Of a stretch of 64,000 bases of DNA, positions 11,827 through 20,283 are shown piece by piece; position 1 is the stretch's first letter, and every line of letters starts with the position of its first letter. Below the pieces are notes generated by a model that was not told where the DNA came from, did no database searches, and was given only the letters and a program-made list of their open reading frames with translations. This DNA comes from Gammaproteobacteria bacterium. GTDB lineage: Bacteria > Pseudomonadota > Gammaproteobacteria > Steroidobacterales > Foliamicaceae. The stretch is taken from the NCBI GenBank assembly GCA_011523505.1, contig WTGP01000008.1, forward strand, positions 140,345-204,344, in the 5' to 3' direction. The position numbers and the translations under genes are program-made.

Positions 11827-14343
11827 CTAGAAGCGGTAGCTGGCGCGCACCCCGAATTCACGCGGGTCGGGGTAGTAGAGCGTCAGCGCATTCGGGAACA
11901 GCAGCGTGAAGAAGAAACGTCCCGGAGGCGGCACCCGGGGAGGTGGAACAAATCCGGACACGATGCCGATGCCGCCAAAGTCGGGCGCCGAAACCCCGCT
12001 CCGCATGGTGTCGTCGTCGAACAGGTTCTCGACATACGCCATGACCGTCCACGAATCCCGCGACAGACCTACCCGAAAGTCCGCCAACATGTAGCTCTCG
12101 AACTCCACCATGTTCCACTCGTCCATCCAGCGGGAACCCTGGTACTGGACATCGAAATCAATCATCAGTTCCGCGCCGTTGGCCAGCCCCGAGCGCCAGG
12201 ACAGACCGGCGAACAATTGATGCTGCGGAACGTCCTCAATCTCGTTTCCGGTCAGGTCCACAAGACAGGTGGTGGTGCCGCCCAGCGTCGTCAACTCGCA
12301 GCCCCCGCCGCGCACCGCATCGTTGATGGAACTGCTCAACTTGTTGTATTCGCTGTACTCGGCCGAAAGCAGCGTATAGCCCCATTTCATTGTGAGGTTG
12401 TCGGTGAGCACCGCCGAAACGTCAACTTCCAACCCCTTGATCAGGGCCGCCGAAGCGTTTTCCGGGCGGGTCGCCAAGTTTCCGCTCGCCGTCTGATACT
12501 GGGTAGTCAGTTGCTTATCGGTGAAATCCTGGTAGAAGACCGCCCCGTTGAATCGCAGGCTATCGTCCATCCAGCTTGTCTTCCAACCAAACTCGAAGAC
12601 CGTCATTTCTTCCGCCTCGAAACGCAGCACGTCCGGATTAAACCCTTCAGGTCCCACCAATGTGCTGATGCCGGCGGGCTTTATGGCGCGCGAGACGGAG
12701 CCGTAGTAGGTCTGTTCGTCCGAGGGCCGGTAGCGCACGATCACCTTGGGCGCCAGGTAGCTGTCGTCTTCCTCGGCTGAAATTGAATGGGCTTCCGGCG
12801 GGAACTGTGTAAACGGACCGAAGGCGTTTCCGATCAGGGTGCCCCCGGACGGTCCACTCATGTCCAGGTCCTCGGTCACGTAGCGGGCCTCAAGGCCGAT
12901 GTCCCAGGCTTCCGTAAATTGCCAGTCCACCAGGCCGTACGCGGACGTGTGGGCAACGTCCCGGTTCCATGGAAGGACATGCCTGGGCACTTCGCTGCCG
13001 ATGCGGGCCACCCAGTAGCCGCAGTCGATCCGCAGGCGGAAATTCGGAACCCCCATCGAGAAGAACGGCGGCAGGAAGCCGTAGTTGATGCAGGTCGTGC
13101 CGTACTCGTCGTGCTGGTATTCCTCGCTCCAGTACAACCCTCCCACGACCCAGGAAACAGGCCCTTCGCCTGTGGACGTGAGCCGGAATTCCTGGCTGAA
13201 CAGATCGTTCTCGGTCACAAAGTTCACCTCGCCGGAGATGCTGATGCCGAATGGTCGAACCGGCGCGGAAATATCGCCTATCCGCTGAGAGTCGTGGAAT
13301 TGATGGGCATCAACGGAACCGACGTGGGAAATGGACGTCAGCATTGCGCCGGCAAAGTCGAACTCGGCGCGCAGCTGCCCGCGCAATACCTCGCGCGTCG
13401 TGCCCTGAAATTCCTCGCCGGTGCGGGGGTCGGGGCTGAGCGTTATGGGCGCGGCGTCAATGCCGGGAACGGTCCCGAACGGCTGATCGACCGAGGTTGC
13501 GTCCGGGTGCCAGATTACTCCCAGGCCAGCGGCCGGCGTGGGGATTGGGACACGAATGTCGGAGGCCGCAGCCGCCCCGGGAGCGAATTCGTCGTCGGTG
13601 TATTCGAAACGCGCCGTGAATCGTGCGCGCTCCCCGACATCAAGCGCTGCCGTCAGCGTAAAGCCCACACCCTCCTGGCCGCCGACATCTCCACCGGTCA
13701 CGGTGTTCTTGTAATAGCCGTCCTCGTTCCAGGCCGCGAAGTTGAACCCGACGAAGAAGTTCTCGCTCAGGGGGCCGCTGGCTGATCCCATGATCTCCTT
13801 CTTGCCTTCGGCGGAAACGTCAACGGAAAGCTGCCCGCGGCGGTCCGCTCCGGGCCGTCGGGTCACGTAGTGGATCGCGCCGCCGAAAGCGCTGCGTCCG
13901 TAAAGCGCGGACTGCGGTCCGCGGACCACTTCGATGCGTTCGATATCGATAAGGCGTGGATTGATCGTGAGCGAACTGCCGGAAGTCCGTACTCCCTCGC
14001 TGGAAATATCCACGTCGTCCAGCAGCACGGCCACGTTCGGACGTCCCCGTGTGGGCGACAGGCCGCGCATCACGACGCGGGTGTCCTGCGGTGAGAACCC
14101 CTTGTCGAAGATGATCCCGGCCGATTGGCGGGCGATGTCTTCGATACTGTCGATGCCCTGGACCATCAGGTCTTCCTGGCTGAAGGTGGTGATGCTGATC
14201 GGCACCTCCTGCAGCGATTCCTCGCGCTTTCGCGCCACCACCACGATTTCCTCAAGCTCCTGCGCATAGACAGGAATCGTGAGGCTTGCGGCGCAAACCG
14301 CCGGAATCATCAAGCGCCAGAGCGCCTTGCCGCGTGCTTCCAT
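11827..14343 (-). CDS. TonB-dependent receptor
   Basis: Signal peptide (VYAQ), TonB box ELEEIVVVARKREESLQEVP, plug motif IERIEVVRGPQSALYGRSAFGGAIHY, C-terminal PREFGVRASYRF; RBS GGAGG before ATG 14343. Confidence 0.95.
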   Translation of the reverse strand: MEARGKALWRLMIPAVCAASLTIPVYAQELEEIVVVARKREESLQEVPISITTFSQEDLMVQGIDSIEDIARQSAGIIFDKGFSPQDTRVVMRGLSPTRGRPNVAVLLDDVDISSEGVRTSGSSLTINPRLIDIERIEVVRGPQSALYGRSAFGGAIHYVTRRPGADRRGQLSVDVSAEGKKEIMGSASGPLSENFFVGFNFAAWNEDGYYKNTVTGGDVGGQEGVGFTLTAALDVGERARFTARFEYTDDEFAPGAAAASDIRVPIPTPAAGLGVIWHPDATSVDQPFGTVPGIDAAPITLSPDPRTGEEFQGTTREVLRGQLRAEFDFAGAMLTSISHVGSVDAHQFHDSQRIGDISAPVRPFGISISGEVNFVTENDLFSQEFRLTSTGEGPVSWVVGGLYWSEEYQHDEYGTTCINYGFLPPFFSMGVPNFRLRIDCGYWVARIGSEVPRHVLPWNRDVAHTSAYGLVDWQFTEAWDIGLEARYVTEDLDMSGPSGGTLIGNAFGPFTQFPPEAHSISAEEDDSYLAPKVIVRYRPSDEQTYYGSVSRAIKPAGISTLVGPEGFNPDVLRFEAEEMTVFEFGWKTSWMDDSLRFNGAVFYQDFTDKQLTTQYQTASGNLATRPENASAALIKGLEVDVSAVLTDNLTMKWGYTLLSAEYSEYNKLSSSINDAVRGGGCELTTLGGTTTCLVDLTGNEIEDVPQHQLFAGLSWRSGLANGAELMIDFDVQYQGSRWMDEWNMVEFESYMLADFRVGLSRDSWTVMAYVENLFDDDTMRSGVSAPDFGGIGIVSGFVPPPRVPPPGRFFFTLLFPNALTLYYPDPREFGVRASYRF

Positions 14344-14413
14344 TTGCTTTCCTCCCAAGCAACGTAGGATTTCGCAACGGATTTTGCCACAACTGCCCCA
14401 AGCGGCGCTTTCG

Positions 14414-14419
14414 TATAAT
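14414..14419 (+). promoter_or_regulatory. Consensus -10 hexamer (TATAAT) 10 nt upstream of the probable TTG start of the HMGR-MVK gene
   Basis: tcgTATAATtgccggcgctTTG; no SD sequence; no convincing -35. Confidence 0.4.
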
Positions 14420-14429
14420 TGCCGGCGCT

Positions 14430-16693
<2,264 letters not shown>

Positions 16694-16697
<4 letters not shown>

Positions 16698-17215
16698 ACG
16701 CGCCGGTCAACCTGGTGCTGGTGGACGCCGAGGACCGTGAAATCGGCGTCGCGGAGAAATTCCAATGCCACGAGGGCGATGGCCTTCTGCACCGCGCCTT
16801 TTCCGTTTTCGTCTACGGACCGGACGGTCGGGTCCTGCTCCAGCAGCGAAGCGCCGCCAAGCCGCTGTGGCCGATGTACTGGTCGAATGCCTGTTGCGGC
16901 CATCCCCTGCCGGGCGAGGACGTTCCGGCCGCTGCCGAGCGCCGCACGCACGAGGAACTGGGCATCTCCTGCAAGGCCCGGTTCCTGTACAAGTTCATCT
17001 ATCAGGCCCGCTACTCCGCCGGCTACTCGGAACACGAGTTATGCCACGTATTCCAAAGCGACTACGACGGCGAACTGGCGCCCGACCCCGCCGAAATCGC
17101 CGCCTGGCGCTGGATCGCGCCGGACGAACTGACGCAGGAGATCGAACGCCACCCCGAACGCTTCACCCCCTGGATGAAGCTCGAATGGGCTGAAATCCTC
17201 CGCTACTCGGAGTGA
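16694..17215 (+). CDS. idi: Isopentenyl-diphosphate delta-isomerase, type 1 (Nudix)
   Basis: LHRAFSVF, LLQQRSAAK, WSNACCGHP, ERRTHEELG, SEHELCHVF, FTPW; GTGA overlap with the upstream stop. Confidence 0.93.
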
Positions 17216-18588
17216 ATGCCGCCCCTGGTGAGCGTGACCGGGTTCAGGATGGCCTTGAGCTGATTTTCGGACAGGTCGGTTTCCTCGACCGCCACTTCCA
17301 GGATCGGCCGCCCTTCCGCATAGGCCCGCTTGGCGATCGCCGCGGCCTTGTCGTAGCCGATTACCGGGTTCAGCGCCGTCACCAGGACCGGGTTGCGTTC
17401 CAGCAGTTCCGCCAGGCGTTCCCGGTTGACCGTCAGGCCGGCGATCGCCCTGTCGGCCAGCATCCGGCAGGCCGCCGAAAGAATCTGGATGCTCTCGAGC
17501 GCGTTGCGCGCGATCATCGGCAGCATGACGTTCAACTGGAAGTTGCCCGACTGGGCGCCCACCGTTATCGCCGCGTCGTTGCCGATCACCTGGGCCGCCA
17601 CCTGCATGGCGGCTTCGCTGGCGACGGGATTGACCTTGCCCGGCATGATGCTGGATCCCGGCTGCAAAGCCGGAAGCGTGATCTCGCCCAATCCGCCCAG
17701 CGGCCCCGAGTTCATCAGGCGCAGGTCGTTGGCGATCTTCATCAGCGCCACCGCCGTTACCTTGAGCTGGCCGGACAGCTCAACCATCGTGTCCTGCCCG
17801 GCCAGCGCCGCAAACCGGTTGCCGGCCGGCGTCAGATCGAGGCCGGTCTTTTCGCTGATCCAGCGGCAGGCCAGTCCCGACATCACCGGGTGGGCATTGA
17901 TTCCCGTCCCGACTGCCGTTCCGCCCAGCGCCAGCTTGTTCAGCCTTAAATTGAGCACCTGCTCAAGCCGGGTCCGGCAGTCGCGCAATTGCGCCGCCCA
18001 GCCGCCGAATTCCTGACTGAGCGCCAGGGGCATCGCATCCATCAGGTGCGTGCGGCCGGTCTTGACGACACCCTCGAATTCCGCGGCGCGCTTTTCGATC
18101 GACCCCGCAAGGTGATCCAGCGCCGGCAGCAGTCGCTCGTATACCTCCAGGGCCGCGGAAAGATGCAGCGCCGACGGAATGACATCGTTGCTGCTCTGCC
18201 CCATGTTGACGTGATCGTTGGGATGCACCCTGACCTCTTTGGAACTGGCGGCGTTGGCGATCACCTCGTTCACGTTCATGTTGCTGCTGGTGCCCGATCC
18301 AGTCTGAAAGACGTCCACGGGGAAGTGCTCGTCGTGGATGCTGTGGGCAACGTGTTCGGCTACCCTCATGATGGCGTTGGCTCGAGCCGAATCCAGCAGG
18401 CCCAGCGTGCGATTGGCCGAAGCGCACGCCCCCTTGATCAGGCCCAGGGCGCGAATGAACGCGCGCGGCATCCTCTTGCCGCTGATCTGGAAGTTCTCCA
18501 CGGCACGCTGGGTGCTGGCGCCCCAAAGCGCGTCGGACGGGACCTTGAGCGTTCCCATGCTGTCGCGTTCGGTTCTGAATTTTGGCAC
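17203..18588 (-). CDS. fumC: Fumarate hydratase class II
   Basis: RTERDSMG, FQTGSGTSSNMNVNEV, HPNDHVNMGQSSND, KTGRTHLMDA, GSSIMPGKVNP. Confidence 0.95.
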   Translation of the reverse strand: MPKFRTERDSMGTLKVPSDALWGASTQRAVENFQISGKRMPRAFIRALGLIKGACASANRTLGLLDSARANAIMRVAEHVAHSIHDEHFPVDVFQTGSGTSSNMNVNEVIANAASSKEVRVHPNDHVNMGQSSNDVIPSALHLSAALEVYERLLPALDHLAGSIEKRAAEFEGVVKTGRTHLMDAMPLALSQEFGGWAAQLRDCRTRLEQVLNLRLNKLALGGTAVGTGINAHPVMSGLACRWISEKTGLDLTPAGNRFAALAGQDTMVELSGQLKVTAVALMKIANDLRLMNSGPLGGLGEITLPALQPGSSIMPGKVNPVASEAAMQVAAQVIGNDAAITVGAQSGNFQLNVMLPMIARNALESIQILSAACRMLADRAIAGLTVNRERLAELLERNPVLVTALNPVIGYDKAAAIAKRAYAEGRPILEVAVEETDLSENQLKAILNPVTLTRGGIHSE

Positions 18589-18654
18589 GAACTACCCCTG
18601 TTGCAGTATGATGCGCGCCTCGGAGTATAGCCGCCCATCCCCATGTCCCGGTAT

Positions 18655-18922
18655 TAGTGTGCTGACTCATGAATGCGTTGCCTTTCAGAGCGGGCCTGAA
18701 GCGTCAATGCAAGGCGCCGTCCGCGGGGAATACTGCACGTATTGCCCAGGACGGCAACGCCGCAGTGGCGCTTCAGGCCCGCTCCCGAAGGGCGCGTCCC
18801 CCATGGCCCGTGGCCGCGTTGCGCCCCTTGGCAATGGGAGACACCATTCCCGGCGGGACGCGCCTTGCCACACGCCATGGGGGACACGCTGAAAGGCAAC
18901 GCATTCATGAGTCAGCACACTA
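18655..18922. mobile_element. MITE-like element: 34-bp perfect terminal inverted repeats beginning/ending in TA, with two internal hairpins
   Basis: tagtgtgctgactcatgaatgcgttgcctttcag (18655-18688) is the reverse complement of 18889-18922; internal IRs gagcgggcctgaagcg/cgcttcaggcccgctc (18688-18703/18769-18784) and gcgcgtcccccatggc/gccatgggggacacgc (one mismatch); no transposase. Confidence 0.75.
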
Positions 18923-20283
18923 GCCCAGCGAATTCCTTATCCGCTCTAGGGCCGCTGGACGGGCGCTACGCTGAAGCCGTCCGCCCGCTCGCGGAATTGT
19001 TCTCCGAACAGGGCCTGATCCTGTGGCGGCTCAAGGTCGAGCTCGCCTGGCTGCGGGCGCTTTGCGGTGAAGAATCATTCGGGCCCGCACCTCCCCTGAG
19101 CAGCGGGGAAACGGCGTTTCTGGACGCGCTGGAGCAGGACCTGGGGCCGCAGGCGGCGGAGCGCGTCAAGGAACTGGAACAGAAGACCCGGCACGACGTC
19201 AAGGCGGTGGAACTGTACCTGGCCGAACGCCTCCGCGAGCACGACTCGCTCTCCGACCGCATTCCGATGCTGCATTTCGCCTGCACAAGCTGGGACATCA
19301 ACAGCAGCGCCTATGGGATCATGCTGGCAAGGGCCCGGTCCGAAGTCCTGGTCCCGGTGCTGGAAGCCCTGATCGGGCAGCTTCACTGCATGGCCCGCGA
19401 GCACGCCGGCCTGCCCATGCTGGCGCGCACCCACGGCCAGCCGGCCAGCCCCACGACGCTGGGCAAGGAACTGGCGGTGTTCGTGCACCGGCTGAAGCGC
19501 CAGCTTGCCGTTTTCGGCGAAGTTCCGGCCATGGCCAAGTGCAGCGGCGCCACCGGCAACTACAACGCGCACTACGCGGCCTGTCCCGATGTGGACTGGC
19601 CGGATTTCAGCCGCCGCTTTCTTTCGGGGCTGGGACTCGAGCAGAACCCGGTCACGACCCAGGTCGAACCGTACGACTGGGTGGCGGAATATTGCGACGC
19701 CCTGGCGCGCATCAACCGCATCCTGCTCGACCTCAGCCGGGATGCCTGGACCTATATTTCGATGGGCTACTTCCGCCAGAAGGCGGTGGGTAGCGAAACG
19801 GGATCGTCCACGATGCCGCACAAGGTCAATCCCATCAACCTCGAAAACGCCGAAGGCAACCTGGGGCTGTCCAACGCCTTGCTGGGTCACTTTTCGGAAA
19901 AGCTCCCCGTGTCGCGCCTGCAGCGAGACCTCAGTGATTCCACGGTCCTGCGCAACCTGGGCGTCGCATTGGGGCATGCGCTGGTGGCCTGGACGGAAGT
20001 GCAGAAAGGTCTGGACAAACTCTCGCCCGACGAGTCCAGAATGAGCGAGGACCTCGACTCCGCCTGGGAAACGCTGGCCGAGGCGGTGCAAACGGTAATG
20101 CGCGCCCACGGCTGTGAGAACGCCTACGAACAACTTAAGGATTTATCACGTAATCAGATAGTTACAAGAGAATCCTTACATTCTTATTTGAAAAACGCAG
20201 AGCTGCCCGACGCAGCGCGTGAGGCGCTGCTCGCCCTGACTCCCGCGACCTACACGGGCATCGCGGAGAAACTGGCCGAGTGA
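18907..20283 (+). CDS. purB: Adenylosuccinate lyase
   Basis: SALGPLDGRY, TRHDVKAVE, HFACTSWDIN, MLARTHGQPASPTTLGKE, GSSTMPHKVNPINLENAEGN, SRLQRDLSDSTVLRN. Confidence 0.96.
   Translation: MSQHTSPANSLSALGPLDGRYAEAVRPLAELFSEQGLILWRLKVELAWLRALCGEESFGPAPPLSSGETAFLDALEQDLGPQAAERVKELEQKTRHDVKAVELYLAERLREHDSLSDRIPMLHFACTSWDINSSAYGIMLARARSEVLVPVLEALIGQLHCMAREHAGLPMLARTHGQPASPTTLGKELAVFVHRLKRQLAVFGEVPAMAKCSGATGNYNAHYAACPDVDWPDFSRRFLSGLGLEQNPVTTQVEPYDWVAEYCDALARINRILLDLSRDAWTYISMGYFRQKAVGSETGSSTMPHKVNPINLENAEGNLGLSNALLGHFSEKLPVSRLQRDLSDSTVLRNLGVALGHALVAWTEVQKGLDKLSPDESRMSEDLDSAWETLAEAVQTVMRAHGCENAYEQLKDLSRNQIVTRESLHSYLKNAELPDAAREALLALTPATYTGIAEKLAE

Follow-up and report, generated by a model that had tools for sequence, protein, structure and literature searches.

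How a gene of core metabolism came to begin inside the arm of a mobile repeat is the question raised by the purB locus of G000, the genome under study (3.12 Mb, 53 contigs, 64.6% GC), within the 64,000-nt stretch of DNA that was analysed (the window). G000 belongs to Candidatus Foliamicus, a genus known from sponge-associated MAGs (named records), and our genus sample comprises 22 genomes, G000 and G003 included; labels of the type L### denote individual copies of the element or locus. We consider it probable that positions 18655-18922 are an IS630-derived MITE that was inserted between codons 5 and 6 of purB and severed the native start, and that an in-frame ATG in its arm lets PurB be made (Table 1). 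A non-autonomous IS630 derivative circulates in Candidatus Foliamicus and related sponge-associated gammaproteobacteria, and its insertion has separated the native start (18643, MSRYS...), together with the upstream signals, from the remainder of purB.

Table 1. Features of the purB locus in G000 (window coordinates)
Feature	Position	Strand	Remarks
fumC (class II fumarase)	17203..18588	-	Divergent neighbour of purB; ORF translation
Relic native purB start	18643..18657	+	ATG TCC CGG TAT, then the TAG of the arm; 4-codon leader ORF MSRY*
IS630-type MITE, 268 bp	18655..18922	+	264-bp GTG...CAC body with TA at either end
Left arm	18655..18688	+	First three bases (TAG) now close the relic purB leader frame
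Internal hairpin 1 of the Y-fold	18688..18784	+	Consensus helices 2-4; double-sided changes in 15/34 pairs (80 copies)
Internal hairpin 2 of the Y-fold	18792..18888	+	Consensus helices 6-7; double-sided changes in 11/37 pairs
Right arm	18889..18922	+	AAAGG (SD-like) 18892-18896; purB ATG 18907-18909; codons 2-5 (SQHT)
purB (adenylosuccinate lyase), 458 aa	18907..20283	+	Read from the arm ATG; Pfam Lyase_1 and ASL_C; single copy

The two arms of the element are 34 nt each, 100% complementary and separated by 200 nt. Exactly two occurrences of the arm sequence were found in the window, against 0 in 100 shuffles. Further inverted repeats lie between the arms (18681-18710/18762-18791 and 18792-18814/18867-18889), and the element strand is predicted to adopt a Y-shaped fold consisting of an outer stem and two hairpins (dG -221.7 kcal/mol; z = -13.65 vs shuffles). 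These results agree with the first-pass annotation of the locus, in which a 268-bp element with perfect 34-bp terminal inverted repeats (TIRs) and two internal hairpins had been described. The conserved fold occupies the entire length of the element, which contains no transposase gene; its sole internal ORFs are mirror images of 77-84 aa. The left arm had also been said to create a mirror MSQHT start on the minus strand, and the corresponding ORF (17963..18670) is indeed present in the ORF list. It overlaps fumC on the same strand in a different frame, and because it is out of frame with fumC we attribute it to the palindrome, as a by-product.

The mobility that had been proposed for the repeat was borne out by its copy number. 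Besides the purB copy, G000 has three further copies of the core (four in total), and the core was found in 18 of the 22 genus genomes, with up to about 29 hits per genome. Complete copies with another arm variant are present in two other families, in Candidatus Azotimanducaceae and in a Pseudomonadales MAG. We extracted 85 full-length copies with their flanks; the copies reside at unrelated loci in both orientations and show presence/absence polymorphism at orthologous sites. The flank consensus of 83 copies is CTA|GTG...CAC|TAG (left C 61, T 72, A 74; right T 69, A 55, G 65), and a CTAG/TA flank is the signature of IS630. Furthermore, ISs of ~1.15 kb (1149 bp) in the genus have the ends CTAGTGTGCTGTCCCGCAAATAAGTT / CTAGTGTCTTGTCCCATAAATAAGTTC, to be compared with TAGTGTGCTGTCCCATAAGTTCG in the arm of MITE subfamily 1. 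The 362-aa ORF of these ISs contains HTH and DDE_3 domains and shares 66-67% identity with annotated IS630-family transposases from Ralstonia, Cupriavidus and Pandoraea. Thus, the earlier suggestion of a TA-bounded MITE, a kind that occurs in IS630/IS5-related families, is upheld by the IS630-like ends and by the CTAG/TA flank consensus of 83 copies. A scan for DDE_3 (PF13358) revealed many copies in G020, G001, G011, G012 and G003 and none in G000; with DDE_3 absent, the four G000 copies may be stranded.

The CTAG/TA target fits some pairs of filled and empty sites (L014, L010 and the dacB site of G008) and misfits two coding-constrained sites, namely purB (TCGA -> TA..TA) and actP (TG -> TA..TG); at many other junctions, a few bases were replaced. 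No clean insertion rule emerged from 40+ filled/empty pairs, whose junctions are irregular; remnants of the ends persist at several 'empty' sites. One such site, in G000, retains 9 nt from an end of the element at a position that is occupied by a complete copy in G013. Intergenic regions often contain solo ends and 48-nt mini-palindromes with the end motif. In G000, intergenic solo or truncated arms (TAGTGYCGTGTC...) lie at C19:459225, C12:19538, C19:81575, C53:222084 and C25:27027, and the remnant arms suggest that elements are frequently lost and leave remnants. The mini-palindromes of ~48 nt at G008:C1:295304-295351 and 1019619-1019666, with two end motifs 32 nt apart, resemble a short, REP-like version of the family. 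A candidate autonomous element of 2.1 kb in G003:C24 was dismissed, as its inverted solo ends enclose rho and trxA and not a transposase. A REPIN/RAYT system was also discarded: Y1_Tnp (PF01797) occurs in 5 of the 22 genomes, not in G000, and its occurrences are single, partial and not flanked by the end motif.

The purB 5' region was retrieved from all 22 genus genomes and compared, a check that the first-pass annotation had named. The site is empty in 20 of the 22, where it reads ...ATGTCCCGGTAT TCGA GCCCAGCG... or a homologous sequence, and the native N-terminus is different from that of G000. In G007, with 97% PurB identity across residues 1-198, the empty site ...CCCCATGTCCCGGTAT TCGA GCCCAGCGAATTCC... 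is translated as M S R Y S S P A N S L S A L G P L D G R Y; the empty sites of the relatives begin ATG TCC CGG TAT TCG AGC CCA... (MSRYSSPANS). Since a homologous native start is in frame in nearly all empty-site genomes (the exceptions are G006 and G016), the ATG at 18643 is the native purB start. In G000, the element is located between GGTAT and GCCCAG, that is, at purB codons 5/6, and the native start is cut off. The native fumC-purB intergenic region (18589-18642), which lies left of the element, has remained intact, and its sequence is conserved across the genus. Within it, the motif TTGCAGTATGATGCGCGC...GAGTATAGCCGC (window 18600-18642) is nearly invariant in all 22 genomes and is probably a shared divergent promoter or operator unrecognised by the consensus scan.

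Read from the arm, the purB frame of G000 is ATG(18907) AGT CAG CAC ACT AGC CCA GCG AAT TCC TTA TCC GCT CTA GGG CCG CTG GAC GGG CGC TAC, and no ATG, GTG or TTG codon occurs in this frame between 18907 and the DGRY motif. The frame therefore confirms that the right TIR holds the purB ATG, the AAAGG and the codons for MSQHT, with no other such start ahead of DGRY. The arm ATG gives MSQHT-SPANS... (MSQHT-SPANSLSALGPLDGRY...), and the length of PurB equals that of the native protein; the candidate N-terminal peptide predicted from this start is (M)SQHTSPANSLSALGPLDGR. That the TIR forms the 5' end of purB holds true insofar as the right arm has the only start that keeps the conserved N-terminus. 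However, the insertion lies inside the coding region, at codons 5/6, and not upstream of it.

The arms provide signals to other genes as well. In G008, a Peptidase_S13 (PBP4-like) gene starts at the arm ATG (MGQHT + CNLVSALALAVLLCSPSAA); its orthologue in G000 reads GTG TTC GTG CTT CGG CCT AGC CAG..., and the G008 element sits at that CTAG. In G007, a C39-peptidase ABC exporter starts at the arm ATG (MRQHT...), and the G000 orthologue starts MPPRASNEAAAS... The arm ATG accordingly heads three unrelated genes: purB, the PBP4-like gene and the C39 ABC exporter. In the arm of the subfamily, this outward-facing ATG is located 13 nt from the arm end and is preceded by AAAGG. The 3' ends of genes can also be affected. 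Another G000 copy, common to G003 and here called copy B, occupies a site that is empty in 18 genomes (GAAGAC TG ATGG), where a TGA stop overlaps an ATG. The filled site is GAC TA[element]TG ATG: a DUF485-like gene that ended in this TGA now has its stop in the TAG of the arm. At this site, the second of the coding-constrained ones (TG -> TA..TG), a T is followed by an inserted segment of exactly AGTG...CACT. Among 113 junction TAGs, 42 close the long inbound frame, vs 22 and 31 in the other two frames, which is a modest excess. ORFs with a repeat fused to their 5' or 3' end have already been described in reviews, as has the neisserial REP2 with its own RBS and ATG (PMC3184786).

At the purB junction, TCGA was converted to TA[element]TA, with a net loss of CG and no plain duplication of TA. 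The first-pass annotation had placed the ATG at 18643 one base out of frame with purB in a reconstructed empty site. This arithmetic is correct for a site from which the element with a TA is excised, but in the real empty sites (TCGA) the ATG is in frame, and the discrepancy arises from the 2 nt (CG of TCGA) lost at the junction. By the rule of copy B (AGTG...CACT placed after T), an insertion at T|C of ATTCGAGC would read ACT CGA GCC and fall out of frame. Loss of CG gives ACT AGC CCA and brings the arm ATG into frame; hence, we infer that the 2-nt loss, simultaneous with the insertion or secondary to it, rescued the gene. Two independent insertion sites of subfamily 1 have the 8-mer ATTCGAGC in common in the empty state, namely purB (GTATTCGAGCCC; window 18650-18660) and L069 (G007:C18, compared with G000 C11; CAATTCGAGCGC), and this 8-mer may be a secondary target preference.

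The purB insertion also occurs in G003, with both junctions identical to those in G000, split over two contig ends. Among the 22 genomes, the arm variant at purB in G000 and G003 (…GCTGACTCATGAATGCGTTGCC…) was found only at purB in those two; no other carrier or master copy was found elsewhere in the 22 genomes, and two metagenome scans gave 0 hits. In the purB tree, G000 is the sister of G007, which has the empty site, and G003 groups elsewhere. The purB genes of the two carrier species are 10% divergent (dS = 0.33 between G000 and G003). Their purB elements have 3 mismatches in 268 nt. Divergence of the flanks is higher, about 7.5% in the left one and, in the right one, 15 differences within the first 100 nt, beginning at +7. 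The purB insertion is young, as judged by the 3/268 differences between the two copies.

Two more orthologous insertions have the same pattern. Copy B (C13:203848-204115 in G000) differs from that of G003 by 2 mismatches in the element and by 5-8% in the flanks, and L026/L057 (G021 vs G011) are 99.2% identical in the element and 94% identical in the flanks. Over the three pairs from different species, the elements are 99-99.6% identical and the flanks are 4-10% different. The element could be more alike than its flanks because insertion alleles were exchanged by gene flow in very short tracts, because insertion recurred at one site or because the element is strongly constrained. G000 and G003 have two insertions in common, and G007, the purB sister of G000, is without both.

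The only purB of G000 encodes a full-length protein with both Pfam domains, and its dN/dS is 0.167 vs G007 and 0.138 vs G003, similar to the 0.10-0.15 of non-carrier pairs. Because the insertion is young, the intact ORF and the low dN/dS mostly reflect the time before the insertion and are weak evidence of function since then. In the predicted fold of a read-through mRNA, both the AUG and the SD-like AAAGG are paired throughout (P(unpaired) = 0.00) in an outer stem of -64 kcal/mol; in the RNA predicted without the left arm, the purB start region is single-stranded. The AAAGG is weak as an SD sequence and lies 10 nt from the ATG. A consensus scan found no sigma-70-like promoter in or beside the element (18350-19050).

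One possible explanation of these features is a recent knock-out or knock-down of purB, tolerated by adenine salvage in a host-associated symbiont, in which the in-frame arm ATG is an unused coincidence. Predicted sequestration of the whole start in a perfect 34-bp stem, the lack of a promoter-like site in the interval scanned and an insertion so young that there was little time for gene decay would all be expected in this case. We nevertheless regard it as unlikely, because the frame is correct (a 1-in-3 chance), the N-terminus has exactly the native length and the junction has lost exactly the 2 nt needed for the frame. Moreover, two species with divergent purB genes keep the allele with an intact ORF of 458 aa, and two other real genes start at the same arm ATG.

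If PurB is instead translated from the arm ATG at 18907, as we prefer, the mRNA would have to lose or lack the left arm for the start to be exposed. Unmasking could occur via RNase III cleavage of the 34-bp duplex or via a 5' end inside the element. RNase III is encoded in G000. Cleavage of MITE hairpins by this enzyme is documented for the Correia elements, in which the long hairpin of co-transcribed arms is cut and the expression of the neighbouring gene is altered (PMC2229807). By analogy with the Correia elements, processing of the duplex, or an internal 5' end, appears to be the most likely route to translation of purB. We also considered a ribosome that terminates on the relic leader ORF and thereby unmasks the start. 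This was rejected, as a standard footprint opens only the bases after the AUG, which remains paired, and a wider footprint opens the AUG and leaves the SD-like motif paired. The element had also been suggested to be domesticated and to be capable of regulating translation; this is a matter of interpretation, and a tolerated or rescued insertion fits equally well.

A third possibility is that purB starts beyond the element, at a non-canonical codon or at a GTG seen in G003, and that the arm ATG plays no part. In G003, this in-frame GTG lies seven codons downstream (CCA GTG AAT CCG). In G006 (L041), the native ATG lies outside the purB frame (ATG TCC CGG TAT TCG AGT CCG TGA), which opens at a GTG eight codons on, so that this genome appears to start at the GTG homologous to that of G003; either the start is a later one or the long-read assembly has a 1-nt error. 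Together, the GTG of G003 and the apparent GTG start of G006 indicate that the first 8 residues of PurB are probably dispensable. However, the codon at this position is GCG in G000, where the only near-cognate start is the CTG immediately before DGRY, and initiation there would delete SLSALGPL, which is conserved across the genus. Besides, a downstream start would be 8-45 nt after the stem and would need the same unmasking as the arm ATG. For these reasons, we find a downstream start very improbable.

The fold of the element was analysed in an alignment of 80 distinct copies. The RNAalifold consensus has 104 predicted pairs, 50 of which have compensatory double changes. Paired cells amount to 98.3%, vs 85.9% in shuffles, and the cells with double-sided changes number 1034, vs 317±20 in shuffles and ≤101 when the partners are slid by 1-3 columns. 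Covariation was observed in 24 of the 31 pairs of the outer stem and, in the basal helices of the hairpins, in 11 of 21 pairs (helix 2) and 10 of 20 (helix 6). Such strong covariation would suit an element that is primarily a structured RNA gene, or a cis-regulatory RNA of purB, and not a transposon. In spite of this, we give such a reading hardly any credence, because the copies are scattered over unrelated loci in both orientations with presence/absence polymorphism, the ends match those of IS630-family ISs and no Rfam family was matched. A search for a known RNA family gave only chance-level hits to miRNA models, far below the gathering scores. Likewise, the mismatches in the outer stem are without strand bias (about 14 G.U vs 15 A.C), and thus the constraint is not obviously that of one RNA strand.

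For a mobile element of the IS630 type, the symmetry of the arms is itself a puzzle. The arms are 31-36 nt long with 0-2 mismatches per copy, and positions 11-30 vary widely between copies, whereas the ends of the parent IS match each other at only 23-25 of 40 positions. A classical fixed TIR does not describe this arrangement, in which the arm sequence differs strongly between copies and self-complementarity is kept. Arms copied from the target flank, or guiding the choice of target, were rejected as well: the same arm types recur at unrelated loci, and arm-flank matches (5.59 nt) are no better than in permuted pairings (5.54±0.09). L008 and L054-L056 each have a single outer-stem mismatch, which is identical in L008, L055 and L056; therefore, symmetry is not restored at every transposition. 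Hairpin-templated correction of quasi-palindromes is established in E. coli. The arm symmetry could come from selection for pairing in active lineages or from hairpin-templated correction.

A broader proposal, in which the element would not be just a passive IS630 MITE, would join these observations: the Y-fold and the arms, symmetric yet hypervariable, would reflect a strand-pairing step, and the outward ATG with its SD-like sequence and the terminal TAG would be portable signals under selection. We put this forward tentatively, as an idea that is doubtful as a whole. If it is true, the strand-pairing step would be either a mobilisation intermediate in the form of a single-stranded hairpin or a hairpin-templated (quasi-palindrome) correction, and the portable start and stop signals would enable the element to colonise gene boundaries, even the 5' coding ends of essential genes. 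The near-identical insertion alleles would then mean either that alleles are passed between species or that the same sites receive the element repeatedly.

Several known repeats resemble the element in part. RUP of pneumococcus, which is mobilised by IS630-Spn1, is likewise a short non-coding element with TIRs resembling those of a resident IS630 IS, TA-type targets and many copies (PMC2229807). However, RUP is 107 bp long, compared with 268 bp here, and the present element differs from it in the Y fold with heavy covariation, in the arms of 31-36 nt that are symmetric within and hypervariable between copies, and in its occurrence in uncultured sponge symbionts. Neisseria REP2 has a promoter and is without terminal inverted repeats, whereas the element described here has its ATG inside a transposon arm, behind the SD-like AAAGG, and no promoter-like site by the consensus scan. 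The Correia (NEMIS) elements of Neisseria are TA-flanked MITEs as well, but they derive from another parent IS family, and Correia arm types can mix within one copy. In the Bacillus cereus group, bcr1 is dispersed and its cruciform-like fold is kept by compensatory base-pair changes (PMC3184786); unlike our element, it is associated with 5-bp direct repeats, and no IS630 parent has been identified for it. REPIN/RAYT systems are similar in the paired inverted units that form a long hairpin, in their compensatory evolution and in the solo or short palindromic relatives between genes, but here no RAYT gene is associated and the ends match a DDE transposon. In conclusion, the element represents a new family of IS630-derived bacterial MITEs, and a repeat that supplies a gene start was already known in principle.

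The purB locus offers a natural case, with 20 empty alleles and two carriers, in which a transposon arm has replaced the start and the first five codons of a core metabolic gene, with the length of the protein unchanged. MITEs can rewrite gene boundaries in uncultured symbionts, and annotators should bear in mind that a repeat can contain the start or the stop codon of a gene. The family is suited to asking why some bacterial MITEs keep an elaborate covarying fold, and what keeps the arms perfectly symmetric when those of the parent IS are not. Elsewhere in the window, an 803-aa ORF (14286-16697, plus strand) has an N-terminal part similar to HMG-CoA reductase and a C-terminal part similar to mevalonate kinase.
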